A stretch of 36,583 nucleotides of DNA from Opitutales bacterium (GTDB lineage Bacteria; Verrucomicrobiota; Verrucomicrobiia; Opitutales; JABSRG01): the NCBI GenBank assembly GCA_049599475.1, contig JBMYOQ010000040.1, forward strand, positions 1-36,583, written 5' to 3'. Below are positions 8,369 through 33,788 of the stretch, one piece after another. Under the pieces are notes generated by a model. It made no database searches and was not told the DNA's origin. It worked only from the letters and a program-made list of their open reading frames with translations. Each line of letters opens with the position of its first letter. The stretch's first letter is position 1. Position numbers and translations under genes: made by a program.

Positions 8369-8392
8369 ATCGTATCCACTCTTCCATACACC

Positions 8393-11587: not shown

Positions 11588-14500
11588 ATGACGAATAAGC
11601 TACCCCCTTATGCGCATGCGCCAGAACAGACAATTGCCCATGGCGGCGACTTTAAGTCTGTTGATCAGCGCTCCAAGCCGAGCCCCTCGATCGCGAATCT
11701 GACTCCCATCCTGGCACTCCCCGCCCTGATGTGCGTTCACAGCGCACACGCACAGATGTCAGTGCACTTCGAAGATACTGCCCGGGAAATGTCGAAAGAG
11801 TATCTGATGCACTGGGATCGGATTGAGGCCAAGTGGTATGGCCCAGAGCTGACTCTTGTCGAAAACGGGGACATGGGCAATGTGCCCGCCAGCGAGCAAT
11901 CCTTTTCATCCGCAGTCATTGGCGACACATTCGGATTCACCGTAGAAGGCGTCGACGACTGGGACATGGCCGATGCAGATACCGAAAGCGCAAACAACAC
12001 ATTTGGCGCCTACATCGCTGGTCTGAATAAAACCAACATCAACATTCACGGCGGAGTGCCCATGGGGCTGGGCGTAGACAATGGAAACAGCTCTGACGTA
12101 AATGATAGTGTAGTCTTTCAGGACAACGGAAACCGCCGCGACAAGATCGACGATATTGGAGAGGCCCTCATAATCACTTTTGATACCAACGGCGGACTCA
12201 TGCCAGCCGAATCCGGACAGTTCCACCCGAGCCCAGAATCAACCTTCACCAACAATGGCCTCGGCGAATTCTCCAAGCTTTTCATTGAGGGCGTTTGGAT
12301 GAAAAAATACGACACCGCGAGCCTAAGACAGACAGGCAGCGTAGATGTCGTTTTCTACGACGTGAGCGCAAATACAGTGGTCCAGCGCCACCTCTACGTA
12401 GGTGCGGATAGCCAATCTGAAGCCTCGAACGTGCTCAACCGTCAAGAAGTCGAAGATGGCGATGTACTGATCCTGGCAAACCCTACTCTCGGGATTGATC
12501 CAGAAACGAACACACCCGTCGATCTCACATACCTAGTCACCGAACTGTGGGGCTTCACCTTCGATATCGAGTTTACACCGCCCGCAGATGATCCAGTCGA
12601 TACCAGCAACCCACCCCAGCACGCATTCGACGCGGGAACCCCCGGAGTCCCCGGATTCTCCAACATCGTGCGTGAAGATGGTGAGCTCGTAGCGCTCTTC
12701 CGCACCGACGGCACCTTGACCGATTTCGATGCCCTGCGAACCGTCACCTTAGATTTCCACAGAGGTTACCTGATCTCTCAAACACGCGGCACAAGCGTAG
12801 GGAACGCCTGGGGCGTTTTCGATATTTCCGATATCACCTCAGCAAATCCCACTGAGTCCGATCCAGTCGACCGCAGACCCACTCAAGTCGGTGAATGGCA
12901 GAAGACTACCGGCTCCACGCCGATGCACACTTACTTCGGCTACGAGCAAGAGCTTCGCGTGAACAACCCGGGGAGGGACTACTATGACCTATCGACTCTC
13001 CCCACCCTTACCCGCCTCGACTCATATCCTGCGGGCTATCAGGCAGTCGGAACAGGCGGTGGACGCAGCGCCTATAGCCTCCCTTACAACTACCACTCTA
13101 GCGGCAATGGACCGGTCACTATCTGGAATGCCAAGACTGGCGAAGACTTGGCGACACTGACCGATCATAATTTTGGTGCCATCGCAGTCCCCGTTGGGAA
13201 TTTGCTCATCCTCGCGAAAATCCGTGCCGGTGAACGCGCGCTAGCCTTTTACGATATCAGCGATCCAGAACGCCCAGCACTGCTCGATGTCATGCGCGCA
13301 AACGACCCTCGCTGGAGGATTCAGGGCCCTAGTGGTGCTTACGAGCCCGCGATTTTCGAGAATTACCTAATTCTCTCTAACTCCCTCCGCGGAGGCTACA
13401 CAGTCTTCATCGATTTCTCGGACCCGACAGACCTGAAGGTCCACCACCGTATCCTTGGAATCGACGGATCCGAGCGCTACCTTCAATTCCAAGACAAGCG
13501 GATGTTCGCCGGCACTGAAGTGATCGACCTCACCTACCTCGACCAAGGAGTTTCGACTGTAGAGCACGTGTTCGATAATCACATCGTCGACGGTGTCGAT
13601 TACGGCGCTCACCAAGGCGAATACATGCTTCCCTTGGGAAATCTTGTGGTCTGCGCTGAAAACTCGGAACAAGGCATTGAGAGCGTCGCAGCAATCTATG
13701 CATTCCAAGCTGAACCCGATGTGCTCGGACCCACCGTCGGGTATCACGTACCGACCGCCGGCGCTACCGATCAAGCCGTCACCTCGCGCATTGGGTTGAT
13801 GATCCACGAGACACTCGATACCACCACCCTCACCGATCAAACTCTCAAGGTATTTAAATTAGGCGATCCCGAGAACAGCATCGCCGGCACCCGCACCATT
13901 AGCGATAAAGACGTTGTCACTTTTACCCCAGAACAAGCCCTTGACTACAACACGACTTACCGCGTAGTCGCCGAGGGCATCAAAGATATCGCAGGCAATC
14001 CTATGGAGCGCTACGTGTTCGATTTCACTACGCAGCAATCCGATTCCCTGTGGTACCCCACTATCGATAGCGTCGGTATCGCTTACGTGCCTTCCATCAT
14101 CGCTGGCCAGGAAATCACATTCTTTACAAATGCCACTCCGGATAATGGAGAACCCCTCGACACACTCGAGTATCGCTGGGACTTCGGAGACGGCAATATT
14201 CAGGATTGGACATCAAATTTCGAAGCGACACATACATACCGCTTCCCAGGCAAATATGACGTAAAGGCCCAAGTGCGCAGCACAAATGCACCGCACTTGA
14301 TAACCATGCTCCAACTACAGCCATCCGTATTCACCAAACCTGCGGGCGAAGATGGCCATGAGCCACGCCTTGAGGCGGAAAACGGGGTATTGACGGGGCC
14401 CAACATTTCTATCGGCTATTCCGACGACTCATCCGGCGGAGCATACGTTCTATGCGAGGTAAATTCTGGAGTCTACTGGGATTTCGATAGCGTCGGCGGC

Positions 14501-17500
14501 CACTTCGATTTCCAATTCTGGGTCGCTATGCCCGAAGGTGAGGAAGTGCCAAGCAACCAAAGCTTCTCATGGCGCATGGGAGTCTACGTAAGCGAGATCG
14601 TAGACGGCGTCGCCACGAATGAGCAGTATCTCGGCGAATTTGCGACACGCAGCACGACTTACGAATACAAGGGCTTTACCGGCTATCTTCCACGCGAAGG
14701 TCGCTACCGCATCCAGCTCAAAGACGGCTCCGGCCCGCGTGAGCCCCGCGTTGATTTCGTGGACATCAAGGGGACCCCCAACCCAATCCGCTATGAAGCA
14801 GAAATGCTCCCAACGGCAAACATTACAAACGGCACAACCACCCCAGCCAACGGAGCTTGGTCTGACGCAAGCGATGGCAATTATGTAGAAGGTGCCGAAG
14901 GGTTTGAAGTCACCTGGAATTTTGATGCATACCAAACGGGTATTTACGACATCACCCTCAGAGCGAGTTCACAAAGCGCCCAGCCCAGCCAAATGGGATT
15001 GTTCGTAAATAATGTGAAGGTCCAAACCATTACACTCAGTTCCGGCAGTTTTGAAGACGTCTTGATTTCGGTGGAACTCGCCGAGGGCGCCAATACCATC
15101 GAACTCCGCGACTCCGAAGGCGGCGCGGAATTCAATGTCGACTATCTCGACATCGCGATACCTGCCTGGGAGGCACCCGCGCCACCACAGCGCAGCAGCC
15201 AAATTGCTTTGGACTCCGAAAACCGCCGCATTTACACCGTAAATCCGGACAACGACTCCATCACCGCGATCGATGCAGATGCCACTCCGGCCGTTAAACT
15301 CTGGGAACGCACAGTATCGAAAAATCCACGCGGTCTGGGCGTGGATTCCCAGGGACGCATCTGGGTCACCAGCTTCGGTGGAGACAGCATCGACATCGTC
15401 GACCCCAACAATGCGACAAACGATCAAGTGCTGCTCTATCCTCACGGATCAGCGCCTCACGATATCGTATTCAACGATGCGGGCACCCGCGCATTCGTCT
15501 CCTTCTACGGCGACCAGAAAGTGATTCAATTCGATGCTGAAAGCGCCCAAGGCGAAGAAATTTCAGAGGTAGCAACAGGCCCCTACCCAACCGCCCTAGC
15601 ACTCAGCGCAGACGAATCCACACTATTGGTAAGCCGCTTTATCTCCGGCGACGCGCGGGGAGACATTTATAAAATTAGTAACGATCCCGCGAGCGGGAAC
15701 ATGACCCTCGAATCCACGATCCCTCTTGCTGCAGATACAGAAAGCGCAGACGGCGGTATCGAAGGCCGCGGCATACCCAATTACATTACAAATATCGCGA
15801 TAAACCCAGAGTCCGGCGATGCCTACATTGCATCACAAAAGATCAATATCTTTGCCGGAGATTTCCGCGACCCAAGTCAACCCCTACTCCACGACTCAAC
15901 GGTCCGCACCATTGTCTCTGTAATCGATACCGAGACAAACGCAGAACGATTTGACGACCGGGTAGATATCGACAAATCATCTCAGCCCTCGGCTCTCTGG
16001 TTCGATCCTCAAGGCAATTTCCTCTTTGTTGCGCTGCAGGGAAACAACGCCGTCCAGATCCTCGATAACGGTGTAAACATCGGCACATTGGAGGTAGGTG
16101 CAGCACCTCAAGGCCTCACCTTCGACCCAGCGACCAATCGCCTCTACGTTAAGAACTTCATGAGCCGCGACGTGAGTGTCCACGATCTATCGAATTCCCT
16201 CCTTCTTGGCAACTTTAGCAACACGCTAGAGACAACGATAGACACTGTCGCAAGCGATGCCTTAGACGTAGGCAACATTCTACTCGGCAAACAAATTTTC
16301 TACCATGCATCGGCTCAAATGTCCCGCGATGGTTACATCTCCTGTGCATCCTGCCACCAAAACGGTGGACACGACGGTGCCACTTGGGACTTCACCCAAC
16401 GCGGCGAAGGTTTGCGCAATACCACGGATCTCCGCGGTCGTGCTGGCATGGCAAATGGCAACGTGCACTGGAGCGGTAATTTCGATGAGATTCAAGATTT
16501 CGAAAATGACATTGTAAATCATTTCGAAGGCTCCGGCTTCCTTCCCGAAGGCGAAGAGCCCAATGCACCTATGGGCGCTTCCAATGCAGGGCGCAGCTTA
16601 GAACTGGACGCCCTGGCCGAATACATTAGCTCCCTCGAAGACGAGAGCCTACCCAATAGCCCGCACAAAGAAGAAAACGGTCTTTTGACTGCTAATGCCA
16701 TAGCCGGTAAGGCTCTCTTTACTTCGCTGGATTGCGCAAGCTGCCATATTCCACAGGACGGCTACACAGACAGTCTCGGAAGTTTCTTACACGACGTCGG
16801 CACCCTCAAGGAATCTTCAGGTAAACGCCTCGGAGGCACTCTTCTTGGAATCGATACTCCGACTCTACTCGGCATTCACACTTCAGCCCCGTATTTCCAC
16901 GACGGCCGTGCGGCGACACTGGAAGATGTGTTCGACCCCACTGGCGATTCCGAGAGAGTCAATGAAGTCGGACAAGTGCATGACCTCAGCGGCCTTACTG
17001 CTACAGAACGCACCCAACTCATCGCTTTCATCAACGAACTCGACGCCTTGGAAGTAGCTACACCACCTGCCTTCACAGAGGGCACTCTGATCGCAGCCCT
17101 AGGAACCGCAGGGGAAGCTTACTCAGAAAGCATTGCCGGAGATGTAAACTACGCGGGCAACGACACCCTGACCTTCTCCAAAGTATCTGGTCCAGACTGG
17201 CTCAGCGTCGCAGCAAACGGAGACCTCTACGGGACCCCGACGAGCGGAGATGTCGGAGAGAATACTTTCACAGTCCAAGTGTCCGCATTCGATGGCACGG
17301 ATACCGCCGACTTGAGCATTCTCGTGGATCAATCTACTGAATCGACCGTGGGCGCAGTCGACAGCGCAAGCCGCTTGGCTCATGCGACATTCGACAGCAA
17401 TGCTGCAGACAGTGATAACACCTTGAACCTCAGCCTAGCGAGCGGCGCCATCATTGAGAGTGGCATTGGCCAATTCGCAGGATCCGTCCGCCTTGGCGGA

Positions 17501-18679
17501 AGCGGCGCAGAAGTTCGCATCGCGGATCATGTCGATTTCAACAACGGTAATGCACCGTGGGCTGAGCGCACTATAGCGCTGTGGTTCACCGTAGATGCAG
17601 TCGTGGGTCGCCAAATGATCTTTGAAGAAGGCGGCAGCACACGCGGCTTCAATATCTACCTTGAGGATGACACTCTCCACGTCGGCGGTTGGGACTCTGC
17701 CAGTGACGGCAACGATACCGGCACTTGGGCAGGCACCTGGCGCACAGTCAGCGGCATCACAGCCAACCAGTGGCATCATGTTGCGCTCGTCCTCGACGCA
17801 TCAGCGAATCCGACAGCACCCACCGAAGGGCAATTCTTTGCCTACCTCAACGGAGTTGAATTCGACGTGGGCAATAGCATCGGCATGCAAATCTGGAATC
17901 ATGGAGACAATGCTGCAATCGGTGGCATCAACGGCGGTTCAAAATATGCGAGCGGTTCTGCCCCCGCAAACATGGTGGGCAACGTAGACGACTTTGCCGT
18001 CTGGAACCGAGCGCTCACCGCTTCTGAAGTCGCCCGCTTGATGGGCCCATCGCTCAACCTTGCAGTGAGCATGATCAACACTTCAGGAGAGGCTGAGGCC
18101 ACAAAAGCATGGACCTTTACCGATCTCGATAGCACGAACCCCCAAGTCACAAAAGGTAGTGTCACCACCGAGGGTTCGATCGGTATCTTGACAGAAGCTG
18201 ACACCTTCACGATTACAGCCTCATCACTGGATGACTGGTCAACAGCGAATGCATCCGCCTCAACGGGTGACTTCCAGACTTACCTCTCCGGTATCGAAGC
18301 CACGAATACATCCACCCTCGATGCTCTTGGCAGCGGCATCATGGGTGTAAACGGCACGTGGATGGAGGGCACAACTGAGGCAATTGTGCTCACAGTAGAC
18401 ACGGCTGGCTTACCTAGCCTAGCGACACTCTACCTCACAGAGATCAACTTCGCCAATTATACAGGAACCGACCGGACTGACTTCCTTATCTTCCGCCCTA
18501 GCACCAACACGGTTATCGCCAATCAATGGAACGCCAACTACAACGGCCCCGATTCCGTATCCGGAAACTGGGCCCTCGAAGACGGCGACAAAATCATCAT
18601 CGCCACCGGCTCTGCAAACCTAAATCAGTTCCGCTTCAAAGGAATGAGCTTTGTAGTGGCAGATCCTGACGCACTCTAA
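11588..18679 (+). CDS. Giant secreted multidomain di-haem protein: unknown N-domain, LVIVD-like propeller, Big_5, PKD, 2x CBM6/35-like, YVTN propeller, bCcP/MauG-family di-haem domain, Ig (He_PIG), LamG, repeat of the N-domain
   Basis: Signal ending AHA-Q; YDISDPERP/IDFSDPTDL repeats; VTFTPEQALDYNTTYRV (Big_5); YRWDFGDG..HTY (PKD); RLEAE/RYEAE..NVDYL (CBM6/35-like); IYTVNPDNDSITAID and TGPYPTALA (YVTN); CASCH at 16343-16357 and 16733-16747; TPTL..APYFHDG; GPDWLSV..GDLYGTP; WHHVALV..VDDFAVWNRALT. Confidence 0.9.
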   Translation: MTNKLPPYAHAPEQTIAHGGDFKSVDQRSKPSPSIANLTPILALPALMCVHSAHAQMSVHFEDTAREMSKEYLMHWDRIEAKWYGPELTLVENGDMGNVPASEQSFSSAVIGDTFGFTVEGVDDWDMADADTESANNTFGAYIAGLNKTNINIHGGVPMGLGVDNGNSSDVNDSVVFQDNGNRRDKIDDIGEALIITFDTNGGLMPAESGQFHPSPESTFTNNGLGEFSKLFIEGVWMKKYDTASLRQTGSVDVVFYDVSANTVVQRHLYVGADSQSEASNVLNRQEVEDGDVLILANPTLGIDPETNTPVDLTYLVTELWGFTFDIEFTPPADDPVDTSNPPQHAFDAGTPGVPGFSNIVREDGELVALFRTDGTLTDFDALRTVTLDFHRGYLISQTRGTSVGNAWGVFDISDITSANPTESDPVDRRPTQVGEWQKTTGSTPMHTYFGYEQELRVNNPGRDYYDLSTLPTLTRLDSYPAGYQAVGTGGGRSAYSLPYNYHSSGNGPVTIWNAKTGEDLATLTDHNFGAIAVPVGNLLILAKIRAGERALAFYDISDPERPALLDVMRANDPRWRIQGPSGAYEPAIFENYLILSNSLRGGYTVFIDFSDPTDLKVHHRILGIDGSERYLQFQDKRMFAGTEVIDLTYLDQGVSTVEHVFDNHIVDGVDYGAHQGEYMLPLGNLVVCAENSEQGIESVAAIYAFQAEPDVLGPTVGYHVPTAGATDQAVTSRIGLMIHETLDTTTLTDQTLKVFKLGDPENSIAGTRTISDKDVVTFTPEQALDYNTTYRVVAEGIKDIAGNPMERYVFDFTTQQSDSLWYPTIDSVGIAYVPSIIAGQEITFFTNATPDNGEPLDTLEYRWDFGDGNIQDWTSNFEATHTYRFPGKYDVKAQVRSTNAPHLITMLQLQPSVFTKPAGEDGHEPRLEAENGVLTGPNISIGYSDDSSGGAYVLCEVNSGVYWDFDSVGGHFDFQFWVAMPEGEEVPSNQSFSWRMGVYVSEIVDGVATNEQYLGEFATRSTTYEYKGFTGYLPREGRYRIQLKDGSGPREPRVDFVDIKGTPNPIRYEAEMLPTANITNGTTTPANGAWSDASDGNYVEGAEGFEVTWNFDAYQTGIYDITLRASSQSAQPSQMGLFVNNVKVQTITLSSGSFEDVLISVELAEGANTIELRDSEGGAEFNVDYLDIAIPAWEAPAPPQRSSQIALDSENRRIYTVNPDNDSITAIDADATPAVKLWERTVSKNPRGLGVDSQGRIWVTSFGGDSIDIVDPNNATNDQVLLYPHGSAPHDIVFNDAGTRAFVSFYGDQKVIQFDAESAQGEEISEVATGPYPTALALSADESTLLVSRFISGDARGDIYKISNDPASGNMTLESTIPLAADTESADGGIEGRGIPNYITNIAINPESGDAYIASQKINIFAGDFRDPSQPLLHDSTVRTIVSVIDTETNAERFDDRVDIDKSSQPSALWFDPQGNFLFVALQGNNAVQILDNGVNIGTLEVGAAPQGLTFDPATNRLYVKNFMSRDVSVHDLSNSLLLGNFSNTLETTIDTVASDALDVGNILLGKQIFYHASAQMSRDGYISCASCHQNGGHDGATWDFTQRGEGLRNTTDLRGRAGMANGNVHWSGNFDEIQDFENDIVNHFEGSGFLPEGEEPNAPMGASNAGRSLELDALAEYISSLEDESLPNSPHKEENGLLTANAIAGKALFTSLDCASCHIPQDGYTDSLGSFLHDVGTLKESSGKRLGGTLLGIDTPTLLGIHTSAPYFHDGRAATLEDVFDPTGDSERVNEVGQVHDLSGLTATERTQLIAFINELDALEVATPPAFTEGTLIAALGTAGEAYSESIAGDVNYAGNDTLTFSKVSGPDWLSVAANGDLYGTPTSGDVGENTFTVQVSAFDGTDTADLSILVDQSTESTVGAVDSASRLAHATFDSNAADSDNTLNLSLASGAIIESGIGQFAGSVRLGGSGAEVRIADHVDFNNGNAPWAERTIALWFTVDAVVGRQMIFEEGGSTRGFNIYLEDDTLHVGGWDSASDGNDTGTWAGTWRTVSGITANQWHHVALVLDASANPTAPTEGQFFAYLNGVEFDVGNSIGMQIWNHGDNAAIGGINGGSKYASGSAPANMVGNVDDFAVWNRALTASEVARLMGPSLNLAVSMINTSGEAEATKAWTFTDLDSTNPQVTKGSVTTEGSIGILTEADTFTITASSLDDWSTANASASTGDFQTYLSGIEATNTSTLDALGSGIMGVNGTWMEGTTEAIVLTVDTAGLPSLATLYLTEINFANYTGTDRTDFLIFRPSTNTVIANQWNANYNGPDSVSGNWALEDGDKIIIATGSANLNQFRFKGMSFVVADPDAL

Positions 18680-18703
18680 AGCGAAACCACAATTCATTCA
18701 CCC

Positions 18704-18738
18704 AAAGCGGCGCAGCGAAACCTGCGCCGCTTTTTTTT
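18704..18738 (+). terminator. Rho-independent terminator of the giant di-haem gene
   Basis: AAAGCGGCGCAG-cgaaac-CTGCGCCGCTTT stem running into a T8 tract, starting 25 bp after the stop. Confidence 0.9.
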
Positions 18739-18787
18739 ACCGCAGAGACTACAGGTATAAAGTCGTTTCTTAGGGGGGTTGGCAGTT

Positions 18788-18967
18788 TATACGGTTTCCC
18801 ATAAGTGTTTTCGTTCATTTTGGTAAACCCACACTTTCGAAGTGCAGGAGTGGTAGGGCGAACCGTCCCTGGTGAGCCGCACCATTTAAGCCTTTGCTAG
18901 ACCCTCGATCGGCTCACCGAGACGGTTCGCCCATTTGTTTACGAAAATTATTTTGAGAAAGGCTCTA
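18788..18967. mobile_element. MITE-like element copy 1 (imperfect ~27-bp TIRs) containing a REP doublet
   Basis: Left end TATACGGTTTCCCATAAGTGTTTTCGT; right end reverse complement TAGAGCCTTTCTCAAAATAATTTTCGT; 30/31 identity (18795-18825 vs 20007-20037) with copy 2; internal REP pair at 18852-18932. Confidence 0.65.
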
Positions 18968-18969
18968 AC

Positions 18970-19037
18970 GGCAGGGGCAAGCGTCCTTGCTTGACCGTGT
19001 CTTTAGCCTCGGGCCGGCGAGGACGCCGTCCCCTACC
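18970..19037. repeat. Degenerate GTAG-type REP doublet
   Basis: GGCAGGGGCAAGCGTCCTTGC... is paired with ...GCGAGGACGCCGTCCCCTACC. Confidence 0.6.
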
Positions 19038-19248
19038 AGCGGCTGTGGCTATCTCATACTTACCGTAATTAAATCGATTTGATATAAGGAATCTAGATTG
19101 ATCCACTTCTATTCTCGCTGGAGTAGAATTTAGCATCAGCAAATCCAAGCGAGCCTTCAGGCCTTAACTGCGCTACGCAATCCCACAAAGAACACCTTTT
19201 CCAACCCGAGGGAGTTGCGATAGCCACGAAATCTGCATACTCTCCGGG

Positions 19249-19944: not shown

Positions 19945-19999
19945 GGCAACATCTAGAGGCCTTCTCAAGAGAGATTTTTCAAGGCCGTCTCAATACTTT

Positions 20000-20135
20000 T
20001 AGAGCCTTTCCCAAAAGTGTTTTCGTTCATTTTGGTAGAAGCCGACGACCCCGGCGGCTTTTCAGCGCGCATTCGGCCGCCGGGGTCGTCGGCCGCTACC
20101 TTGGGTTTACGGATATACTTTTGAGAAACAGTCTA
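20000..20135. mobile_element. MITE-like element copy 2 containing a different REP doublet (20034-20100)
   Basis: Left end TAGAGCCTTTCCCAAAAGTGTTTTCGT; right end reverse complement TAGACTGTTTCTCAAAAGTATATCCGT; TA at both ends; internal GGTAG...CTACC inverted pair. Confidence 0.65.
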
Positions 20136-20206
20136 CCTCAACGCCAGAGTCCTCTGGGATGGCCCTAAGTTTGCTCATCGCGCGGGCGTAGCTCCCGGAT
20201 CGAACC

Positions 20207-21205
20207 ATGCACATTTCCACGCGACGCAACTTCATCAACACAGCCGCAAATGCGGCACTTGGCCTTTCCGTGAGCCCCCACCTCACAGCGCAACCATCGG
20301 ATACCTCAGTTTCCCAAACAGGTTTGGTCTGGGACGATCGCTATATTGACCACACACAAGGAGAAGATCACCCCGAATCCCCAATGCGCCTCAAGGCGAT
20401 TGATTGGCAACTCCAGGCAAACGGTATAAAAGATCGATTATATCCCATCGCTGCCACAGCAGACCCCGAGCCCTATATTCGGATGATCCATTCTGAGGCC
20501 CACATCGAAATGGCAAAGCGTCAGGCATATGATGACGCTATCTGCCGCTTAGCCGTCTCTGGCGCGCTGAGCGCTGTAGATGCAGTGTGTATGGGAAAAG
20601 TGAAAAATGCCTTCTGCGCACTGCGCCCACCAGGGCACCACGCCGCAAACAACGGCGAATACGGCTTTTGCTTTTATAACAACGTAGCAGCTGCAGCCCG
20701 TTATGCACAAAAGCAATATGGATTGGGGAAAGCCTTGATCGTGGACTGGGATTACCACCATGGCGACGGCACCGAGTGGGCCTTCTACGACGACCCTTCC
20801 GTGCTCACCTGCTCTACCCACGCTCTCCATGCATTCCCACGATCAGGCGCTACCGATAGAACAGGCACCGGAGCCGGCCGCGGATATAATCTCAACATAC
20901 CACTCCCCGCTGCCGCCAAGGACTCCGATATACTACAAGCCTTTAAAGAAACACTCCTGCCGCGTGCCTATACCTTTAAACCGGACATCGTATTCATCTC
21001 CGCAGGCTTCGACGCGCGCCACCATGACCCCTTGGGAGATTTCAACATCACAGACGACGGTTTCGCCCATCTCACCCAGCTCATTATGGAGCTTGCTCAA
21101 GAACATTCCGAAGCCCGCACCATCTCTCTCCTAGAAGGCGGCTACAATACCCACGGCCTGGCCCTTGCCGTAGAAGCCCATATCCGAGTATTGATGGATG
21201 GCTAA
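20207..21205 (+). CDS. Histone deacetylase / acetylpolyamine amidohydrolase family protein with Tat-like signal
   Basis: HPESPMRL, RPPGHHA, GFCFYNN, DWDYHHGDGT, SAGFD..DPLG, LEGGY; N-terminal STRRNFI twin-arginine motif. Confidence 0.92.
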   Translation: MHISTRRNFINTAANAALGLSVSPHLTAQPSDTSVSQTGLVWDDRYIDHTQGEDHPESPMRLKAIDWQLQANGIKDRLYPIAATADPEPYIRMIHSEAHIEMAKRQAYDDAICRLAVSGALSAVDAVCMGKVKNAFCALRPPGHHAANNGEYGFCFYNNVAAAARYAQKQYGLGKALIVDWDYHHGDGTEWAFYDDPSVLTCSTHALHAFPRSGATDRTGTGAGRGYNLNIPLPAAAKDSDILQAFKETLLPRAYTFKPDIVFISAGFDARHHDPLGDFNITDDGFAHLTQLIMELAQEHSEARTISLLEGGYNTHGLALAVEAHIRVLMDG

Positions 21206-21261
21206 AATACAAAATCACGCGTAGTCACTCGCCCACTACATTGTCGACAACCAAACCCAAT

Positions 21262-23444: not shown

Positions 23445-23478
23445 CCGAATGGGCATCGCTTGAAGAGATTTCGAAGGC

Positions 23479-24861: not shown

Positions 24862-25076
24862 ATATCACATCTGAATCCTCTACTCGGGTCGTCATGCAAT
24901 AAAATGGAGTCTTCCGACCCAAAGAGTTACAGCATGAGCGAACCGCGTAAGGGGAATAACACTTACCAATGGATGGATCTTAACAGCTCAGTGAGCGTTT
25001 TTGCAAAAGCTGAGAATTCGAGCGCCCTCCGTCCCGACAGAGCCTAAATCGGAACCCCCAATTTGGGCGACTAGTG

Positions 25077-27017
25077 CTATTTTTCCACGACCTCGACCCC
25101 ATCGGGCAGTTTTGCGAGTTGGGCCGGACGGAACTGACCCGGAGCAACGATAAGCTTTTGCAAACTCTTATGTTCGGACAGCGGATTGAGCGTCTTGATA
25201 CGGAGTCCTCGAAGGTCCAGCTCCCGGACATTTAGAGATTTGAGTGGAAGCAACTGTTGCACAGAGGACTGCTGAAGGCTCAGTTTAAGCGGTTCCACAA
25301 CAGCGAGGACGCTCCATGTGTTGGAAAAACCAAGATGCGCGACTCCGGGATCCACAATTTTCCAAACGCCATCGGAAGACTGCTTCATTATCGGTCCGCT
25401 CGCATCAGGGTTCAGCAGAGCCAAGACTCCATTTACGATGAATATTCGATCTGCCGCTGGCCGCTCGAACGCACTGTCATATATTAAAAGAAGTTCGAGA
25501 AACTGGGTACGGTTGTACAGCGGATTCGTATAAATATCTTGGATATAGTTGAGTAGGTCTTCGGCACTCAGGCAGCCGTTTTCCTGAAGTTTAGGCGCAT
25601 ATTTATGAGCTAAATCAACGAGATCTTGAACGTTCAACGATTCGCTCTCCGGATGCTGATTCCGTTGACGCTCCGTCCTGAGTGCCGCCTGAAAATCTTG
25701 CCGAATGGAGCACAGCCAGACTTTCTGAGTCCACACATAGAGGTTTGGCGGCGGATCATACTGTAGCACTGCATTGACCTGCTTTAGGGCTTCCTTGACA
25801 TTCCTTGCGAGCGCATCGGGCAAAGTATTGAACCGTGTCAAAGCGGTCGCCTGCCTGGCGGCAACTGAGGCTTGGTTCCGGAGGCGCTCTTCGCTTATTT
25901 GCTTCTCTTGCAAGTATTGAGATAGAGCCAATTCCGCTGTAGCACGGCTCTGGTCCAGCTGCATAATGAAAATACTGGTACCAGCGATGAGCAATATGCT
26001 AAACACAAGGGCGACCTGAGATGCCGTCTTATTCCTCAAATAAAATCGCTTAAGCTCCCGTAGAATATGTGTTTGTTCGGTCGATACAGCGTAACCGTCC
26101 AGGAAGCGTTCAATATCAGCACCCAAGGCCTCCATCGTGGCGTAGCGCTCATGAGGATTCTCCTCACAGGCTTTTCGCACGATCGCCACGAGAGCCGGGT
26201 CTGTCATGCTGGATTCATGACCCGCACCGACAGTCTCTTCAATAAGACGTCCCAATGCATAGATATCCATTTGCGGTGTTTTGGCTTCGCGGGGATCCTT
26301 CTGCTCCGGAGCCATAAATCCGGGCGTGCCCGCTTTTAGATTGAGCAGAGGTCCATAGAGGTCTGGATCGAGCAAGGTGGAATCCTCTTCCGTTGAGAAG
26401 ACGACCGCCATCCCCCAATCACACACTTGCACCTCGCCGAAGGTACCTACCTGAATATTCTCTGGCTTGAGATCGAGATGAACAATTCGATTGGCGTGCG
26501 CGTACGTCATCGCATCACAGATCTTTTGTACGACACGCATGCGCTGTTGAATCGAAATGTGTTTTTCGCCCGATTCTATCTGTTTTGTAAGCTCATGTAA
26601 GGAACTGCCTTTTTTGAGCTCCATTGTGAAAAACGGGCGCCCCGCCTTATCCACCCCCATATCAAAGAGGTCTATAATCGCGGGGTGCTCCAAGCGGGCA
26701 GTAAAATGTGCCTCGCGGAGGAAGGCATCATAATGATCCAAGGACACCTCTTCTTTCGGGCAAGCCAGAGCCACGTCTCGCTCAGTCTGCGAATCGTAGG
26801 CCTTGTATATCTGCTTCATTCCCCCGACGCCCAGGGACTCCACAGAATGGTAGCGATCTTCGATCTGATTTAGCCGAGAATACAGAGGCGCGATTTCTTC
26901 CGTGTCCGACGGCTGAGACATCTCCCGAGGATGGGCCTGAGCATAGAGATCTTGGGTGAATTCATTTAAATTCTCCCGGGCAAAATCAAACAGCTCCCGA
27001 CTCTCGTCCTTATCCAT
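25077..27017 (-). CDS. Membrane Hanks-type Ser/Thr kinase with WNK-like Lys placement, non-RD loop, TM helix and C-terminal LRRs
   Basis: GVGGMK, VALA, FLREA, LEHPAI, HLDLKPENI, CDWG, GTPGFMAPEQ, DIYALG; TM VALVFSILLIAGTSIFIM; LRR LKSLNVRELDLRGLRIKTLNPL. Confidence 0.92.
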   Translation of the reverse strand: MDKDESRELFDFARENLNEFTQDLYAQAHPREMSQPSDTEEIAPLYSRLNQIEDRYHSVESLGVGGMKQIYKAYDSQTERDVALACPKEEVSLDHYDAFLREAHFTARLEHPAIIDLFDMGVDKAGRPFFTMELKKGSSLHELTKQIESGEKHISIQQRMRVVQKICDAMTYAHANRIVHLDLKPENIQVGTFGEVQVCDWGMAVVFSTEEDSTLLDPDLYGPLLNLKAGTPGFMAPEQKDPREAKTPQMDIYALGRLIEETVGAGHESSMTDPALVAIVRKACEENPHERYATMEALGADIERFLDGYAVSTEQTHILRELKRFYLRNKTASQVALVFSILLIAGTSIFIMQLDQSRATAELALSQYLQEKQISEERLRNQASVAARQATALTRFNTLPDALARNVKEALKQVNAVLQYDPPPNLYVWTQKVWLCSIRQDFQAALRTERQRNQHPESESLNVQDLVDLAHKYAPKLQENGCLSAEDLLNYIQDIYTNPLYNRTQFLELLLIYDSAFERPAADRIFIVNGVLALLNPDASGPIMKQSSDGVWKIVDPGVAHLGFSNTWSVLAVVEPLKLSLQQSSVQQLLPLKSLNVRELDLRGLRIKTLNPLSEHKSLQKLIVAPGQFRPAQLAKLPDGVEVVEK

Positions 27018-27621
27018 GCTCCCCTTCTAGCTCAAAACGTAGGGTTTGAATTTCCTGAGTAAGGCGCGTCTTCACACGATTCTTGAGCACATAGACACTC
27101 CCCTGCGTAAGGTTCAGTTCCGATGCGATCGCCTCCGACGATTTACCTTTCAGCGAAAGCGCAAGCACGGCAAAGGCTTTGCCAGAAAAAACCGACTGCA
27201 AGCGATCCATGGCCAGCTCGACAATATAGCGCTCCCACTCGCCTTGGATAAAATTTTCTACCTGCGAATTTTCTGGGGATACGCATTCGGGCTCATTCTC
27301 TTCGAGGGGAGAATGTTGTTTGCGTTTCTGCGATTTAAACCAGTTCAAGGCCGTATTCCGGATCAGCGTGGATAACCAATTCCGGAAACGCGCTTGTTTC
27401 TCATCGCGGTGATACTTGTCCAGACCTTCCCACATACGGATGAGAACCAGCTGGCGCACCTCATCGAGATCAGACCCTTTCAACCCCATCCGTCCAAGAA
27501 TTTTGTTCACGAACGGCGTATAATACTCGAGCAACTCATTCCACGCCGGGTCATGGCGATCCGCCTTTACCTGCTGCAGCAAAGAAACGCGTGTAGGAAG
27601 CATATCTGTGTATCGGCGCAT
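27010..27621 (-). CDS. ECF sigma-70 factor of the kinase-associated PVC type
   Basis: TRVSLL..AWNELLEYY, RFRNWLSTLIRN (sigma2); SEAIASELNLTQGSVYVLKNRV (sigma4); 8-nt overlap with the kinase start (ATGGATAA). Confidence 0.93.
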   Translation of the reverse strand: MRRYTDMLPTRVSLLQQVKADRHDPAWNELLEYYTPFVNKILGRMGLKGSDLDEVRQLVLIRMWEGLDKYHRDEKQARFRNWLSTLIRNTALNWFKSQKRKQHSPLEENEPECVSPENSQVENFIQGEWERYIVELAMDRLQSVFSGKAFAVLALSLKGKSSEAIASELNLTQGSVYVLKNRVKTRLTQEIQTLRFELEGEHG

Positions 27622-27893
27622 CGTCTCGAGGGCTTACGTTAAATCAAAGGAAGCCACAAAGACAAGAATGGCCTCGTTGCAAAATCTAGGGCTGGGTTTG
27701 GGGACTCCAAATAGCCGCAAAATCACGCCCTCACCTATCCCAGATTTCCCTCAAAAATCGGAATGCCCAATTATTTAAAAAAATCAGTCAGGAAGGTCAG
27801 ATTCATCTTGTTTAGCAGTCATAGGAAAGCTCTCGACACCACATTTTTTACAGAGCTTGCCCGTGTTTGAACTGATCAACCGCCCCCTACCCC

Positions 27894-30800
27894 ATGAATA
27901 AAATATGTCTCATGTTCGGTATCGCCGCTCTGATACCGAGCCTTACCCCTGCACAAGTTGCATTTCGTTCCGATAATTCTGGTCCCGTCGCTCAAAGGGA
28001 CTTTTTCTTCCACTGGAACGGCTTCGAAGCCGAATGGTTTGGACCCGAAGTCCAATACGTCCAAGACGGCGATACGAAGCTCGTAGATACCAACAGCCCC
28101 ACGACTTTCCCCAACGGATACGTCGGCAGCTCTTTTGCCTACTCCATGACGGGAGTGCAGGACTGGAATACGGAAAACGCTGAGAAGGTCTTGAATGGCT
28201 TAAGTATCGATGAGGGGAACGGCCCTGTCACCTATCCTGATTTCCCAGCCTATCTCGCTGCACGCACTGCAGCGAACGTGGGCAAGCATGGAGGCTCACA
28301 ATTCGGTTTCGGCATCCAGACCGATGTGACCGAGGACGAACTGGGCGGAAACGTGCGCGCAGACAAGTTGGATTACAAAGGCGAGGCGATCATCATCACG
28401 TTCGATACCGACGGCAGCTTAGACATGGACAATGCTGTGGGCACCTTTGGCCCGATTCCGAATCAGCGCTTCGAAAACACAGGCCTGAGGGATGATGTTA
28501 CCCTCACGATCACCGAAGTGCATGTGCGCAGATGGTATGAAGGCCAGGACATCTATGTGGACATTCTTTTCTACGATGCCAGCACCGGCCAAATTTTGAC
28601 TGACGCCAATGGCAGCCCCGCCCTCCATAAATACGAGGATTTGGGCCCGGCAGATAAGGATGATCGAAACAGCCCCGATCGCCCATTTTTCACTCAGGGT
28701 GCTCCCTGGGTGATCGAAGATGGCGACATGCTGATCATTGCGCACCCTACGGATGAGTCCCAGAACTTGAACGGCATCACCTCCGAGCTCTGGAGCATGA
28801 CCTTCGACCTTAACTACGATAAGCCGGCCTTTGAATACCCTGAGGTCCCCGGCGATCCCAACCTTATCCCACAACACCCCTACTCGCCCGGCTTTCACAA
28901 TACCTGGCGTGAGGATGGAGAGCGGATCGCCTTGTATCGCACAGTGCCCAAGGAGCCGGACCCAAATGCAGATCCCGAAACGGATCCTGTCGGCGCTCGG
29001 GATTTCGAAACAATCCGGACTGTTGTGACTGAGTTTCACCGCGGGCACCTCATCACCGATAACCGTATCGCATCCGAGGAAAATAAGGGCATCTACTTCG
29101 ATTTCTCTACGGTCACCGACCCCGATCGCGATGAGTCCAACGAAGATAACCTACGCCCTTCGGTGGCATTCCAGGGGGTAACTGCGGGCGCGATGCACCA
29201 GGCATGGCACCTGATTCCAGACTATCGCGGCAATCACGGCCCGACGAATTGGGTTGAGCTTTCTGGATTGAGTGACCCAAGCCCTACCGTCGAAAAAGTG
29301 TTCACCCCACCAGGCTTTGACTTTCTCGCTGGCGATGCTCGTAGCTCTTACGCACTCCCCTACGTCTACAGCAAATTCGGAGACGGCCGGGAAATTGCCG
29401 ACGCTCGCACAGGAGAGCAACTGTCCTCTTACAGCGAGCACGGTTTTGGCAGCGATGTCATCTCAATGCCGGTGGGAAATATTCTCCTCGTGTGTAAGGT
29501 CCGTGCGGGAGAGCGCGCCATTGCCACATACGATGTGAGTGATCCGCGTCGACCAGCCCTCCTCGATGTTATGCGCGAGGATGATCCTCGATGGAAGGAT
29601 ACGAATAGAGGGGCCTACGAACCCGCTGTTTACAATAATTACATCGTCCTCCCGGCCGGGGTCGGGGGCTCACGCGTCGCCTTTATTGACTACTCTGATC
29701 CCTCAAACCTACGTATGCACCACTCCATCAGAGAGGTAGAGGGAGGTGTCCGCTATGTGCAATTCCAGGATCACCGTATGTTCGTCGGCAGGCAGGTTGT
29801 GGATCTCTTTCATATAGATGCCGGCATTTCATCCATCGAGCACAATTTTACCGGATCCTCTGGAGAATACTTACTCCCCCTCGGAAACCTTTTGCTTTCA
29901 GCTGAAAATTCAGAGCAAGGCATCACCAACCAAGCCGCCATTTACGCATTCCAGGCAGAACCAGACGTTCGCTCGCCCAAAGTGAGCTATCACATCCCGG
30001 CGGATGGCGCAGTCGATCAACACATTAAATCGCGGATTGGTTTAATCATTCACGAGACCCTCGACCTCACCACACTGCATCCGGCAAACCCCAATTCGCC
30101 CAGTGACACCGATCCGCTGAGAGTATATCGCCTCGGAACCGACGGAGAACCCGAGGCGCTGATTTCGGGCACGGTCGTAGTCAGCGACAAAGACGTCATT
30201 ACCTTCACACCGAATGCGGACCTAGATTACGCGACTCGCTATCGGGTGGTTGCAGAAGGCTTCACAGATATCGTAGGGAATCCTGTAATACCTCATCAAT
30301 TCGAGTTCGAAACTCAGAGCGCAGGTGCCATATGGTATCCTGAAATCGAGTATGCGGGACTCGCCCCGGATTCTGAGTCGATCGTCGGACAGACAATTAA
30401 TTTTTCAACCGTAGCCTCTCCTTACGAAGGCGAGTCCGCCGATACTTTGGAATATCGCTGGGATTTCGGCGATGGCACGATCAGTGACTGGATCTCGAGT
30501 TCCGAGGAATCGCACATCTATAGCTTTCCCGGAACATTTACGGTGAGAGCATGGGTGCGTAGCGAGAATGCCCCAGACCTCAAGGTCGTGCGCATGTTCG
30601 AGACTCGAGCCGATTTCAAAGATGCGGGCGAGGACGGCTTTGAACCACGTTTCGAAGCGGAATTCGGGACTTTGACAGGCAATCACAGCGAAATCCAAAG
30701 TGATTCAGATGCATCGGGCGGCCTCACTGTGAAAACGGGAGCCAGCTCCGGAGTCTACTGGGATTTCGAAACTGTGGGCGGCGATTTTGATTTCAAATTC

Positions 30801-33788
30801 ATGATGGCCGTCCCTAGCACCGTAGAAGAAATTCCGTCCAATACGATATACTCATGGCGTAAGGTGGTTACTCTGAGTGAGATCGTAGACGGGGAGGCAA
30901 TCAACCCCACAGACCTTGGAATCATCGCCTCCCGCAGCTTTGATTATAGCAGCCAAAGAGTCTCAGGATACATTCCCAAAGCCGGGCGTTATCGTCTCGA
31001 CACGACAAAGGGCGACGGGCCGCGAAGACCGTTAATAGACTTCGTGGATGTGACAAACGGGAACAACACCTACAGGTATGAGGCCAATCTTGAGGATTCA
31101 GAGAACATCACAAGAGGTACGATCACCAATGCTGAACCTGGGACCAATCTAGAGGACGCCACCGAAGGCGTTTACGTCCACGCCGGTTCACGTTTCGGTA
31201 TGAAATGGGATTTCGAGGCCTTCCAAGCTGGCTCTTATGAAATGACTCTCAGAGCGGCGTCTAGACTCGTAAATAGCTACATGGGCCTCTTCATCAACGA
31301 CGAGAAGATCGATGTGCTCCATCTCAAGGGAAAAACTTTCAAGGAGCTGACTTGGACCGCAGAACTGGTAGAGGGCAACAACGTCATCGAGCTACGAGAC
31401 TCCGAAGGCTCCTCTGAATTCCACGTCGATTACCTCGATATTAAAATACCTGACTGGCAGGCACCAGAAGTTTACCTTCCACGGAATAGCAGCCAGCTAG
31501 CCCTCGATATAAACGGTGGCATGATCTACACGGTGAACCCCGACAATGACACCATTACCGCTATTGAGAGCGTCGAAAATGTAGACCCTGCACCCGTATG
31601 GGAGCTCGATACACCCGGTAATCCCAAGAGCATTGCCATGGATGCAGCCGGGCTTCTGTGGGTCACCTTACATGAGGGTGATGCCATTCGAATCATCGAT
31701 CCAGCACTGCAAGAAAGTGTCCTCGACCTCACCCTCGATTACGGCTCTCGCCCCCACGACATCGTCATGAGCCGCGATGGAACCCGAGCCTTCATTTCGC
31801 TTTATGGAAGCGGGCAAATCATCCAGATGGATACGACTGACTATAGTTTCGTGAGCTCGGTCGATACGGGCCCCTACCCCGCAGCACTCGCCCTCCGAGG
31901 CAGAGATCTAGAACTGCTCGCAGCACGCTTCATTTCCCCAGCAGACTGGGGCGAAATATACTCTATTGCGATCGATCCGGAAACTGAGGATATGAGCCTG
32001 AGCTCCACCTTGACCCTCGCTAAAGATACCGTGAGTGAGGTGGGTCCAAGTTCTGGCCAGGGCGTTCCCAACTATTTGGCGAGCATCGTGATCAACCCCG
32101 AGGACACCATTGCCTACATTGCATCTCAGGAGGTCAACAGCGTAGCGGGCGCCTTCCGCAACGGTGAACAGCTGAATCACGATTCTACCGTTCGCCCCAT
32201 CGTCTCCATGATAAACCTGGAGACAGGCGAAGAAGACTTCGAAAGCCGCATCGACCTAAACGACGCTGCGCAACCCCAGGCGATCACCTTCTCACCGGAC
32301 GGCACATACATGTTTATCGCTCTCCAAGGAAGCAACGTCATCTCCGCGAGAACTACAGCAGACAATGTCGAACGGTCGAGCCTGAGCACCGATCTCGCAC
32401 CTCAAGGCCTGATTGTGGACCCCGGGACAAATCGCCTCTTTGTTAAAAACTTCATGAGCCGCTCAGTCACCGTCCACGATGTTTCTGGCCAATTATCCGA
32501 CAACAGCAGACTAGACATCTCTACGCTCATAGAAAAGGAAGAGGCGCTCGATCCCCAGATACTCCTCGGCAAGCAGATCTTCTATAATGCGGATGACGAG
32601 CGTATGAGCTTCGAAAGCTATATCTCTTGCGCATCCTGCCACCAGGACGGCGGTCATGACGGTGTAGTCTGGGATTTCACCCAACGCGGAGAGGGCCTGC
32701 GTAATACCACCGATCTGCGTGGTCGCTCCGGCACGGCGCATGGCAATGTGCACTGGACCGCAAACTTTGACGAAATTCAAGACTTCGAGTTAGACATCGT
32801 AAACGATTTCGACGGCGATGGCTTTATCGAAGACGAAGACCCCAATGATGCCATGGGAGCGCCCAATGCGGGCCGCAGTGACGATCTCGATGCACTCGCT
32901 GCCTACGTCGCCTCCCTAGGCGAAGAAACCGTGCCTCCGAGCCCTTACCGTGAACCCGATGGCTCGCTCAGCACCCAAGGGATGCACGGCATGCGTCTCT
33001 TTACGGGCGAGCTCACTCCGGCTTCCGGCAACACCCTAAGCTGTATGGAGTGTCACGCTCGCGATTATGAATATAACAATAGCCAGAGCTTCGCCGGGGA
33101 AAGCATTCCAAGTGGCGCATTGCGCGATGTCGGAACCCTCGAAAGTAGCTCGGGCACACGCCGGGGAAGCCCTCTTCTCGGAATCGACACACCGACACTC
33201 TGGGGACTGCACGCAGGTGCTCCGTATCTGCACAATGGCAGTGCAGCAACAATCGAGGCGGTGTTTGACAAGTTCGATCCAGACGCCCCTCTCGGCTCGG
33301 ATGGAGCCGCACACAACCTATCTGAAAGTGGCTACGACTTGACCGACGATGAACATGCAAGCCTCATGTCCTTCCTTTATCAGATCGATAATACTGAGCG
33401 TGAGCAGATGAATTCAGGCACCTGGATGGCGTCCTGGGGTCAGGATCTGGGCCCGAAAACGGCAGACTTCGACGGCGACACCATAAGCAACTTCCAGGAA
33501 TATCTATTCGGAGGCAATCCAATGCGCTTCGATAGCCCCGATATTCTGCCCAAGATCGTATTCGAGGACGGAGTTCCCCAGTACAGCTTCAATTGGCCAG
33601 CGAACGACCCGAATATCAGCTACACACTGCAGACTTCGGTCGACTTGAATGAATGGACCGAATTCATCGACGCAGGCGTTCCCACCGCAGCAACGATCGA
33701 CGCCTTCCTGGATTCTATCCAACTCGTCATTGACGAAAATCAAGAGCAATCCTTCTACCGGCTGGAGGTGTTTGAGTCAGAACTGTAA
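27894..33788 (+). CDS. Second giant secreted di-haem protein, paralogue of 11588..18679, ending in a verrucomicrobial-type C-terminal domain
   Basis: Sec signal ending TPA-Q; same domain order through the di-haem domain; CASCH at 32628-32642 and CMECH at 33042-33056; near-identical WDFTQRGEGLRNTTDLRGR and HWxxNFDEIQDFE; C-terminus DFDGDTISNFQEYLFGGNP...SVDLNEW...FYRLEV. Confidence 0.9.
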   Translation: MNKICLMFGIAALIPSLTPAQVAFRSDNSGPVAQRDFFFHWNGFEAEWFGPEVQYVQDGDTKLVDTNSPTTFPNGYVGSSFAYSMTGVQDWNTENAEKVLNGLSIDEGNGPVTYPDFPAYLAARTAANVGKHGGSQFGFGIQTDVTEDELGGNVRADKLDYKGEAIIITFDTDGSLDMDNAVGTFGPIPNQRFENTGLRDDVTLTITEVHVRRWYEGQDIYVDILFYDASTGQILTDANGSPALHKYEDLGPADKDDRNSPDRPFFTQGAPWVIEDGDMLIIAHPTDESQNLNGITSELWSMTFDLNYDKPAFEYPEVPGDPNLIPQHPYSPGFHNTWREDGERIALYRTVPKEPDPNADPETDPVGARDFETIRTVVTEFHRGHLITDNRIASEENKGIYFDFSTVTDPDRDESNEDNLRPSVAFQGVTAGAMHQAWHLIPDYRGNHGPTNWVELSGLSDPSPTVEKVFTPPGFDFLAGDARSSYALPYVYSKFGDGREIADARTGEQLSSYSEHGFGSDVISMPVGNILLVCKVRAGERAIATYDVSDPRRPALLDVMREDDPRWKDTNRGAYEPAVYNNYIVLPAGVGGSRVAFIDYSDPSNLRMHHSIREVEGGVRYVQFQDHRMFVGRQVVDLFHIDAGISSIEHNFTGSSGEYLLPLGNLLLSAENSEQGITNQAAIYAFQAEPDVRSPKVSYHIPADGAVDQHIKSRIGLIIHETLDLTTLHPANPNSPSDTDPLRVYRLGTDGEPEALISGTVVVSDKDVITFTPNADLDYATRYRVVAEGFTDIVGNPVIPHQFEFETQSAGAIWYPEIEYAGLAPDSESIVGQTINFSTVASPYEGESADTLEYRWDFGDGTISDWISSSEESHIYSFPGTFTVRAWVRSENAPDLKVVRMFETRADFKDAGEDGFEPRFEAEFGTLTGNHSEIQSDSDASGGLTVKTGASSGVYWDFETVGGDFDFKFMMAVPSTVEEIPSNTIYSWRKVVTLSEIVDGEAINPTDLGIIASRSFDYSSQRVSGYIPKAGRYRLDTTKGDGPRRPLIDFVDVTNGNNTYRYEANLEDSENITRGTITNAEPGTNLEDATEGVYVHAGSRFGMKWDFEAFQAGSYEMTLRAASRLVNSYMGLFINDEKIDVLHLKGKTFKELTWTAELVEGNNVIELRDSEGSSEFHVDYLDIKIPDWQAPEVYLPRNSSQLALDINGGMIYTVNPDNDTITAIESVENVDPAPVWELDTPGNPKSIAMDAAGLLWVTLHEGDAIRIIDPALQESVLDLTLDYGSRPHDIVMSRDGTRAFISLYGSGQIIQMDTTDYSFVSSVDTGPYPAALALRGRDLELLAARFISPADWGEIYSIAIDPETEDMSLSSTLTLAKDTVSEVGPSSGQGVPNYLASIVINPEDTIAYIASQEVNSVAGAFRNGEQLNHDSTVRPIVSMINLETGEEDFESRIDLNDAAQPQAITFSPDGTYMFIALQGSNVISARTTADNVERSSLSTDLAPQGLIVDPGTNRLFVKNFMSRSVTVHDVSGQLSDNSRLDISTLIEKEEALDPQILLGKQIFYNADDERMSFESYISCASCHQDGGHDGVVWDFTQRGEGLRNTTDLRGRSGTAHGNVHWTANFDEIQDFELDIVNDFDGDGFIEDEDPNDAMGAPNAGRSDDLDALAAYVASLGEETVPPSPYREPDGSLSTQGMHGMRLFTGELTPASGNTLSCMECHARDYEYNNSQSFAGESIPSGALRDVGTLESSSGTRRGSPLLGIDTPTLWGLHAGAPYLHNGSAATIEAVFDKFDPDAPLGSDGAAHNLSESGYDLTDDEHASLMSFLYQIDNTEREQMNSGTWMASWGQDLGPKTADFDGDTISNFQEYLFGGNPMRFDSPDILPKIVFEDGVPQYSFNWPANDPNISYTLQTSVDLNEWTEFIDAGVPTAATIDAFLDSIQLVIDENQEQSFYRLEVFESEL

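Follow-up and report, generated by a model that had tools for sequence, protein, structure and literature searches.

Domain architecture of two giant paralogous proteins

The window analyzed here, a stretch of 36,583 nucleotides from an Opitutales bacterium (contig JBMYOQ010000040.1), contains two giant paralogous genes, A (11588..18679, 2363 amino acids) and B (27894..33788, 1964 amino acids), both of which are intact open reading frames (ORFs) on the forward strand, with starts 16,306 bp apart. Judging from their signal-peptide-like N-termini, both products are likely exported to the cell surface. Each combines a β-propeller of LVIVD type (termed P1) with a second propeller of YVTN type that is joined to a di-haem cytochrome domain (together termed the core). 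The core is closest to the β and γ subunits of hydrazine synthase, and the two proteins represent a real, uncharacterised member of the hydrazine synthase βγ branch of the di-haem superfamily. A first-pass annotation of this DNA had described the paralogues, their domain order, their spacing of about 16 kb and their export much as found here, except that the source genome holds nine paralogues, each with P1 and a core, rather than two. The main clue that it overlooked is the fixed partnership of the core with P1, whose place a copper-radical oxidase takes in a sister clade.

Protein A (all coordinates are window positions, and those within A and B are on the forward strand) begins with a predicted signal peptide (11588..11752) that has a long n-region and putative cleavage after residue 55, with comparable sites in the paralogues, followed by a lineage-specific N-terminal domain of unknown function (11753..12586) weakly resembling small PEP-CTERM surface proteins. 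P1 (12620..13723), with His447 (12926), Tyr585 (13340) and Tyr631 (13478), precedes a Big_5 Ig-like domain (13727..14032), a PKD domain (Pfam-matched part, 14096..14281) and two CBM6/35-like modules of putative glycan binding (14363..15163). The seven-bladed, hydrazine synthase β-like YVTN propeller (15185..16258) is followed by the γ-like di-haem domain (16265..17047), which includes CxxCH motifs at 16343 and 16733 (residues 1586 and 1716), Trp1628 (16469), Phe1638 (16499), Gly1648 (16529) and, by alignment, the candidate haem-2 ligand His1798 (16979). Three further domains had not been listed before, namely a He_PIG Ig domain (17099..17323), a LamG-like lectin-fold domain (17525..18034) and a C-terminal domain (18065..18676) that has homologues in three small PEP-CTERM proteins encoded elsewhere in the genome; Big_5, He_PIG and LamG were likewise assigned by Pfam.

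Protein B repeats most of this order, with a signal peptide predicted from its sequence (27894..27953), an N-terminal domain of unknown function (27954..28829), P1 (28875..29969; His435, Tyr575 and Tyr621), Pfam-matched Big_5 and PKD domains (29964..30566), two CBM6/35-like modules (30645..31451), the YVTN propeller (31479..32543) and the di-haem domain (32544..33392; CxxCH at 32628 and 33042, residues 1579 and 1717, with Trp1621, Phe1631, Gly1641 and His1807). It ends in a previously unlisted C-terminal domain (33414..33785) that is common to many secreted proteins of the genome. This domain, with its F-x-R-hydrophobic ending, is shared by 41 ORFs, which encode large secreted proteins, sulfatases among them, and it is possibly a sorting signal.

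A and B are 45% identical across 1887 alignment columns, and the identity of individual domains ranges from 36% (N-terminal domain) to 58% (di-haem). Big_5, PKD, CCP_MauG and cytochrome c matches exceed the Pfam cut-offs in both proteins. The CBM_35 match occurs in A only and lies just below its cut-off (26.8 versus 28 bits), with no match in B; a CBM-like module of A also matches a module of a GH98 structure (E 3.7e-5), and the calcium-type motif is kept in these modules, with putative binding residues that differ among the paralogues. The LVIVD character of P1, proposed earlier, is borne out by Pfam matches in 20 of 36 aligned relatives, with no Pfam match in A itself, and by a model that is a propeller.

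Relationship of the core to hydrazine synthase

In profile comparisons of the di-haem domain, hydrazine synthase γ ranked first (104 bits), followed by 3O5C (82) and 1IQC (73), both bacterial cytochrome c peroxidases (bCcP), and then by 6e1c (54), MauG (36), 6nx0 (34) and 4b2n (21), where 6e1c, 6nx0 and 4b2n are taken to be MbnH, BthA and RoxA, respectively. The MauG/bCcP assignment of the first-pass annotation thus holds at the superfamily level, with PF03150 scoring 50.7 and 30.3 bits against a cut-off of 25.6, and fails for the type, as γ outranks the ordinary peroxidases and MauG and the peroxidase pocket is lost (see below). The predicted core is a single rigid unit (predicted local distance difference test, pLDDT, 92.5; predicted template-modelling score, pTM, 0.94). 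Fold searches with the core were swamped by propellers, and its di-haem domain was compared by profile only; for the propeller, the closest structures were 1l0q (Z 35.9) and hydrazine synthase β (Z 35.1, root-mean-square deviation 2.1 Å over 303 residues), and all the remaining propellers reached Z ≤32.7.

The order of a YVTN propeller followed by a γ-type di-haem domain of the CCP fold is the same as in hydrazine synthase β/γ (PDB 5C2V chains B and C), and the two subunits are fused in Scalindua. Fused βγ homologues of hydrazine synthase are described in PMC12758564 as common, Trp-bearing and of unknown function. The A/B family, which retains the Trp, belongs among them, as two of its Sporocytophaga members (WP_051312830.1 and WP_081990468.1; P0188 and P0382) are tips of the supplementary homologue tree of PMC12758564, a membership taken without sight of the figure label. 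The literature searched, which left most subscription papers outside and covered the supplement of PMC12758564 in part, yielded no functional description of this family, P1 or the oxidase fusion, and a keyword search of PMC11267884 for haem or cytochrome found neither term; the family is represented only by database entries and by tips of trees.

The family shares with γ a Tyr before the first CxxCH and the His aligned with His332, but it has Trp in place of His144, Gly in place of Asp168 and no Cys165, a variable position (γ numbering follows PMC12758564 and PMC12607021). It also differs from hydrazine synthase in its partner, which is P1 or a copper oxidase, and in its additional Ig and glycan-binding modules. 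A true hydrazine synthase was rejected on the absence of these three γ residues and of an adjacent α gene: a single α query found no α-subunit gene in 80 homologous loci, and the hydrazine synthase models NF052341 and NF052342 scored far below their cut-offs. The sole α-type gene of the source genome sits on contig C7, where it forms a separate hydrazine-synthase-like pair (G000:C7:65854-71909) with a βγ gene whose product lacks the HW motif and is distant from the A/B family.

Haem pocket and candidate ligand of the second haem

Pocket residues and haem ligands were assigned from printed, hand-indexed alignments rather than coordinates. Both proteins contain the two CxxCH motifs and the inter-haem motif HWxxNFDE noticed earlier, and its Trp (W1628 in A, W1621 in B), which aligns with the Trp of peroxidases and MauG and with γ His144, is kept in 78 of 78 sequences. 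In the peroxidase pocket Gln, Pro and Glu stand at Trp+10, +14 and +20 (Trp98/Gln108/Pro112/Glu118; PMC10094543), and this pocket is required for peroxide activation in bCcP, MauG and BthA (PMC6405878, PMC10094543). In the family, Phe occupies the Gln position in 390/390 motifs and Gly the Glu position in 389/390, counts that include duplicates and come from loci selected by a pattern containing the Phe; both residues are also present in 100% of 120 hits that were not pattern-selected. The Pro position is held by Ile, Met, Val or Leu, and Gly1648 of A aligns with both the catalytic Glu and γ Asp168.

For the second haem, His1798 aligns with γ His332, which is a ligand of this haem in hydrazine synthase (PMC12607021), and is a candidate ligand of haem 2 that would make it a His/His haem; the loop ahead of it is of low confidence in the model. 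The candidate His is present in all nine paralogues of the source genome, and neither A, B nor the rest of the family was seen to have Met or Tyr at the position of the haem-2 ligand. A late His at +14 occurs in 30 of 33 oxidase-type cores. A subclade was also observed (L013, L014, L015, L017, L018, L019, L021, L024, L030, L032, L046 and others) in which a CBM-like module starts directly after the PYxHxG of the second haem and takes the place of the helix carrying the distal His; several of these modules contain a His-Gly.

Compared with bCcP (3O5C, 1IQC and the Neisseria BCCP), the family shares the fold, the two CxxCH motifs, the inter-haem Trp and the calcium-site Asn and Pro positions, but it has Phe/Ile/Gly for Gln/Pro/Glu, lacks the Met ligand and the His-switch loop, and carries a fused propeller. 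MauG, MbnH and BthA belong to the same superfamily, and the Trp is kept as in MauG, whereas the Tyr ligand and the distal Glu are missing; the MauG-type models TIGR03791 (42 and 24 bits in A and B, cut-off 444) and TIGR04039 (38 in both, cut-off 363) are far from matched. Without the Glu, BthA is impaired in its peroxidase activity as well as in its bis-Fe(IV) state, and replacement of Tyr by His abolishes bis-Fe(IV) in BthA and MauG (PMC6405878). Given these mutants and the Phe/Gly pocket, the family is aptly described neither as a canonical peroxidase nor as MauG. The canonical peroxidase was rejected on the absence of Gln/Glu and of the Met ligand, and MauG-type self-modification on the absence of the Tyr ligand and the distal Glu. 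RoxA has a His/His second haem and an inter-haem Trp. It is also an extracellular di-haem protein of the CCP fold with a hydrophobic, acid-free pocket (PMC6797691), but it is very distant in sequence, with the RoxA-type models NF051462 and NF050034 at 14-20 bits against a cut-off of 900, and has no propeller cap or partner module.

Partner modules of the core

The 80 loci contain 84 core ORFs. P1 is the fusion partner in 32 of them and a galactose-oxidase-like module in 33, and no ORF carries both. The remaining 19 include four with P1 in the upstream gene, one that is the latter fragment of a disrupted P1 gene, one with an LVIVD plus Big_5 region missed by the first P1 profile, two with an oxidase upstream and nine cut by a contig end. 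The pairing with P1 recurs in other samples: in 151 genomes of the phylum of the window, each of the 17 P1 matches is followed by a core in the same reading frame and P1 accompanies 17 of the 18 cores, while 80 of 129 full-length P1 representatives carry a core, including all 76 that have more than 850 residues after P1. Even in five genomes picked for split or lone forms, seven of eight P1 matches are just upstream of a core; the three other cores of these genomes are a contig fragment, an oxidase fusion and one standing alone.

The copper-radical oxidase modules are intact in their catalytic residues, with Cys, Tyr, Tyr, His and His all kept in 35 of 35; one such fusion is RZU02267.1 of Rivibacter. 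The 33 oxidase-fused cores form a single clade within the P1-type cores (support 100, FastTree), and P0119, which falls outside it, may represent a second fusion, judged by FastTree only. SCO1-type genes (six loci) and a second MauG/MbnH-type gene (seven loci), which is fused to MbnP in the single representative scanned, accompany the oxidase clade exclusively. This sister clade is analogous to known systems in which a haem protein assists an AA5 enzyme: a fungal copper-radical oxidase is activated by a weak peroxidase independently of turnover (PMC9770985; PMC12951238), and Streptomyces GlxA occurs with Sco and DtpA (PMC4736821). Like the AlcOx-Perox pair of Colletotrichum and GlxA-Sco-DtpA, the clade has an intact AA5 module, a haem partner and Sco genes nearby, but its haem fold is different, and A and B have P1 in place of the AA5 Kelch propeller. 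A purpose-built oxidase profile found no copper-radical oxidase in A, B or the source genome; searches with PF09118 gave no match anywhere, controls included, and so carry no evidence of absence. In Rivibacter, one oxidase is followed by two tandem cores (P0008).

The P1 propeller and glycan-binding modules

P1 is modelled as a propeller (pLDDT 77), and its structural matches by Foldseek and VIA are generic propellers only (Z about 20). In the ESM Atlas it matches only LVIVD clusters of low recognition value, and hits of the N-terminal domain there are below 0.8 and uninformative. A known enzyme fold for P1 was rejected on these results. In a P1 alignment with a mean column identity of 25%, Tyr585 and Tyr631 are kept in 274/274 sequences and His447 in 264/274. 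Each of the three stands at the start of an inner strand, and they would therefore cluster at one channel mouth.

In the split forms of Bacteroidota, glycan-binding modules go with P1. Of 14 apparently complete P1-only proteins scanned (of 49), seven have NPCBM, CBM6/35 or ricin modules (five of them with type IX secretion system, T9SS, tails), one has LamG and six have no glycan module; NPCBM, CBM6/35 or ricin modules were seen in none of 37 T9SS-tailed haem halves among 120 shorter hits, counted by eye. In Splendidivirga the accessions of a P1 half and a haem half are consecutive, and WP_346752282.1 and WP_346752283.1 form a split pair. A GH48 gene lies directly upstream of a fused P1-type gene in two loci (L012:4960-7929 and L016:5762-8182), and Aquimarina versions of the family carry PF00942, presumably CBM3. 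The modules on the P1 halves, the GH48 adjacency and PF00942 point to P1 as the part that would meet the glycan. Of the glycan targeting proposed in the first-pass annotation, a family-wide association with glycan-binding modules is supported; the CBM pair itself is lineage-specific and dispensable for the family. Both the N-terminal domain and the CBM pair are local additions, since of the first 120 hits only 10 contain the former and only 10 the latter. Other additions ahead of P1 include a lactonase-type propeller in P0028 (G000:C41:4087-11940) and an esterase at L070:2317-7515.

Taxonomic distribution

With the core as the query, 3785 of 8000 long and 1016 of 8000 shorter candidates scored as matches, and a scan of species genomes gave at least 545 relatives among 602 stretches listed, from many phyla. 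The spread is patchy: in the phylum of the window, 9 of 151 genomes have matches, and 9 of the 18 matches belong to the source genome. Among the named homologues, the nearest belong to Verrucomicrobiota and Opitutales. Split versions with about 800 amino acids per half occur in Sporocytophaga, Splendidivirga and other harmless bacteria that are in culture. A single TGA was observed within a di-haem match (G163:C44:244823-245608), reflecting a broken gene, an error or recoding.

Proposed mechanism and alternative explanations

The near-constant pairing with P1 or a copper oxidase suggests that the haem unit accepts electrons as the partner of an oxidase that has so far gone unrecognised and probably targets sugars. 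The account favoured here, possible rather than probable, is that of a two-part redox enzyme in which P1 acts on a glycan-associated substrate, with the haem unit serving P1 as an electron sink or activator. P1 would be catalytic, its His/Tyr/Tyr forming one site, and would exchange electrons with the haem unit; these may enter at the predicted His/His haem 2, pass through the conserved Trp to haem 1 and be discharged there onto O2 or H2O2. Where a copper oxidase is fused instead, re-oxidation of its resting Cu-Tyr site would fall to the haem unit, in the manner of fungal peroxidase partners.

A number of observations weigh against this account. The main objection is that the pocket used for peroxide activation is Phe/Ile/Gly here, with the acid missing, and RoxA, whose pocket is likewise acid-free, has no peroxidase activity and is harmed by H2O2 (PMC6797691). 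P1 resembles no known enzyme, its weakest sequence hint being a phosphotriesterase (E 0.033), and has no conserved Cys. A CBM-like insertion takes the place of the late His in 14 of 31 P1-type cores, and three have no His. Two of the 84 cores (L048 and one in L090) show no partner, the 33 oxidase fusions form one clade and hence count as one event, and the linkers between P1 and the di-haem domain range from 539 to 1157 amino acids.

The missing acid might instead mean that haem 1 is itself catalytic, with an O2-binding, RoxA-like pocket that oxygenates or oxidises a small molecule, released by P1 or the copper oxidase and channelled through the propeller as in hydrazine synthase. This is rather unlikely, but it would account for the near-invariant Phe and Gly, since the RoxA pocket is hydrophobic, has no acid-base catalyst and serves O2 rather than peroxide chemistry (PMC6797691), and conserved propeller loops resemble, by eye, the β loop of hydrazine synthase; RoxA, however, reaches only 21 bits against the family profile, no substrate is suggested, and the propeller cap would exclude a polymer. 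Retention of γ chemistry, with the unit reducing, binding or sensing NO or another small gas, is suggested by the kinship with γ and β as the closest solved relatives and by the Tyr before the first CxxCH and the His332 position in common. It is improbable in view of the changes of Asp168 to Gly and His144 to Trp, the absent Cys165 and the lack of an α-type gene in the 80 loci, and it leaves the oxidase fusions unexplained.

A role as an ordinary peroxide scavenger that guards the cell surface with outside electron donors appears quite improbable. The CCP_MauG match, the kept Trp and calcium-site Asn and Pro positions, the fusion of one clade to an H2O2-making oxidase and the retention of H2O2 reduction by BthA Y463H (PMC6405878) all speak for it, but the catalytic Gln and Glu and the Met ligand are absent, and nine copies with differing binding modules and a fixed P1 pairing would not be expected of it. 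Equally improbable is that P1 is a lectin or adhesin and that it and the haem unit are independent passengers on a surface scaffold with no electron exchange. LVIVD domains have been described as surface or interaction modules (bioRxiv 2022.05.06.490989), linkers and accessory domains vary and some cores have no partner, yet all 17 P1 matches lie alongside a core, the adjacency outlasts gene splitting, and P1 and the oxidase are mutually exclusive. The first-pass annotation had also considered that the enzyme builds its own cofactor, MauG-style, and this is unlikely without the Gln/Pro/Glu pocket and a Met or Tyr haem-2 ligand. Propeller enzymes with MauG-type maturases are known, and the kept inter-haem Trp and the invariant tyrosines of P1 would suit an enzyme that uses H2O2 and bis-Fe(IV) to form a cofactor from Trp or Tyr within P1. 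Such a role is the least probable of those considered, however, as the haem-2 ligand position has no Tyr, the distal Glu needed in BthA is absent (PMC6405878), and the scores are low (MauG 36 bits; TIGR03791 42 against 444).

To return to the two-part redox enzyme, if P1 is an oxidase it would represent a new oxidative carbohydrate-active family; even otherwise, the haem unit broadens the bCcP/MauG superfamily to include a pocket that lacks the catalytic acid. The chemistry of the fused βγ-like homologues of hydrazine synthase, known to be common, is left open in PMC12758564, and the present family offers a direct test of it, as it has a partner whose sister form is of known chemistry, an invariant Phe/Gly pocket and small split versions. 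A broader proposal, speculative and on balance doubtful, is that P1 founds a new class of His/Tyr-based glycan oxidases with the hydrazine-synthase-like di-haem unit as their dedicated activator, the P1 pair being the older form into which the copper-radical oxidase was later swapped. This would give marine Verrucomicrobia and cellulose-degrading Cytophagales an oxidative route into polysaccharides and would show the role of the hydrazine synthase βγ ancestor before anammox.

Genomic context

The first-pass annotation had also drawn support from nearby sulfatase and sugar-oxidation genes, and this argument for a polysaccharide role was rejected. With 109 sulfatase matches in a 4.68 Mb genome, about one is expected per window, and a sulfatase lies within 10 kb of three of the nine paralogues compared with 26% of random stretches, that is, at chance level (105 of the 109 positions were used). 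The reductase, lactonase-like amidohydrolase and zinc dehydrogenase genes at 6488-9412 encode proteins without visible signal peptides and look like cytoplasmic sugar catabolism, and no recurrence of such genes beside homologues was found in the homologous loci compared. The full run at 6488-10448 (forward strand), comprising an aldo-keto reductase, an L-fucono-lactonase-like amidohydrolase (below cut-off), the zinc dehydrogenase and an AraC regulator, probably constitutes a fucose-type sugar pathway of the cytoplasm.

Upstream of A, promoter and terminator signals did not exceed the chance level, and cytochrome c assembly genes are present in the source genome. Divergent from B, an extracytoplasmic function (ECF) sigma factor gene and an overlapping Ser/Thr kinase gene occupy 25077-27621 (reverse strand), and a second related kinase gene lies downstream of B at 34143-36203 (forward strand). 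These flanking genes are possible regulators of B, and one further sigma-kinase pair occurs on contig C48. Elsewhere in the window, a 1778-residue two-partner secretion (TPS) filamentous protein with DUF5649 repeats is encoded at 14-5350 (reverse strand), its partner transporter being absent from the window, and a probably exported histone-deacetylase-family protein with a twin-arginine-type signal is encoded at 20207-21205 (forward strand).

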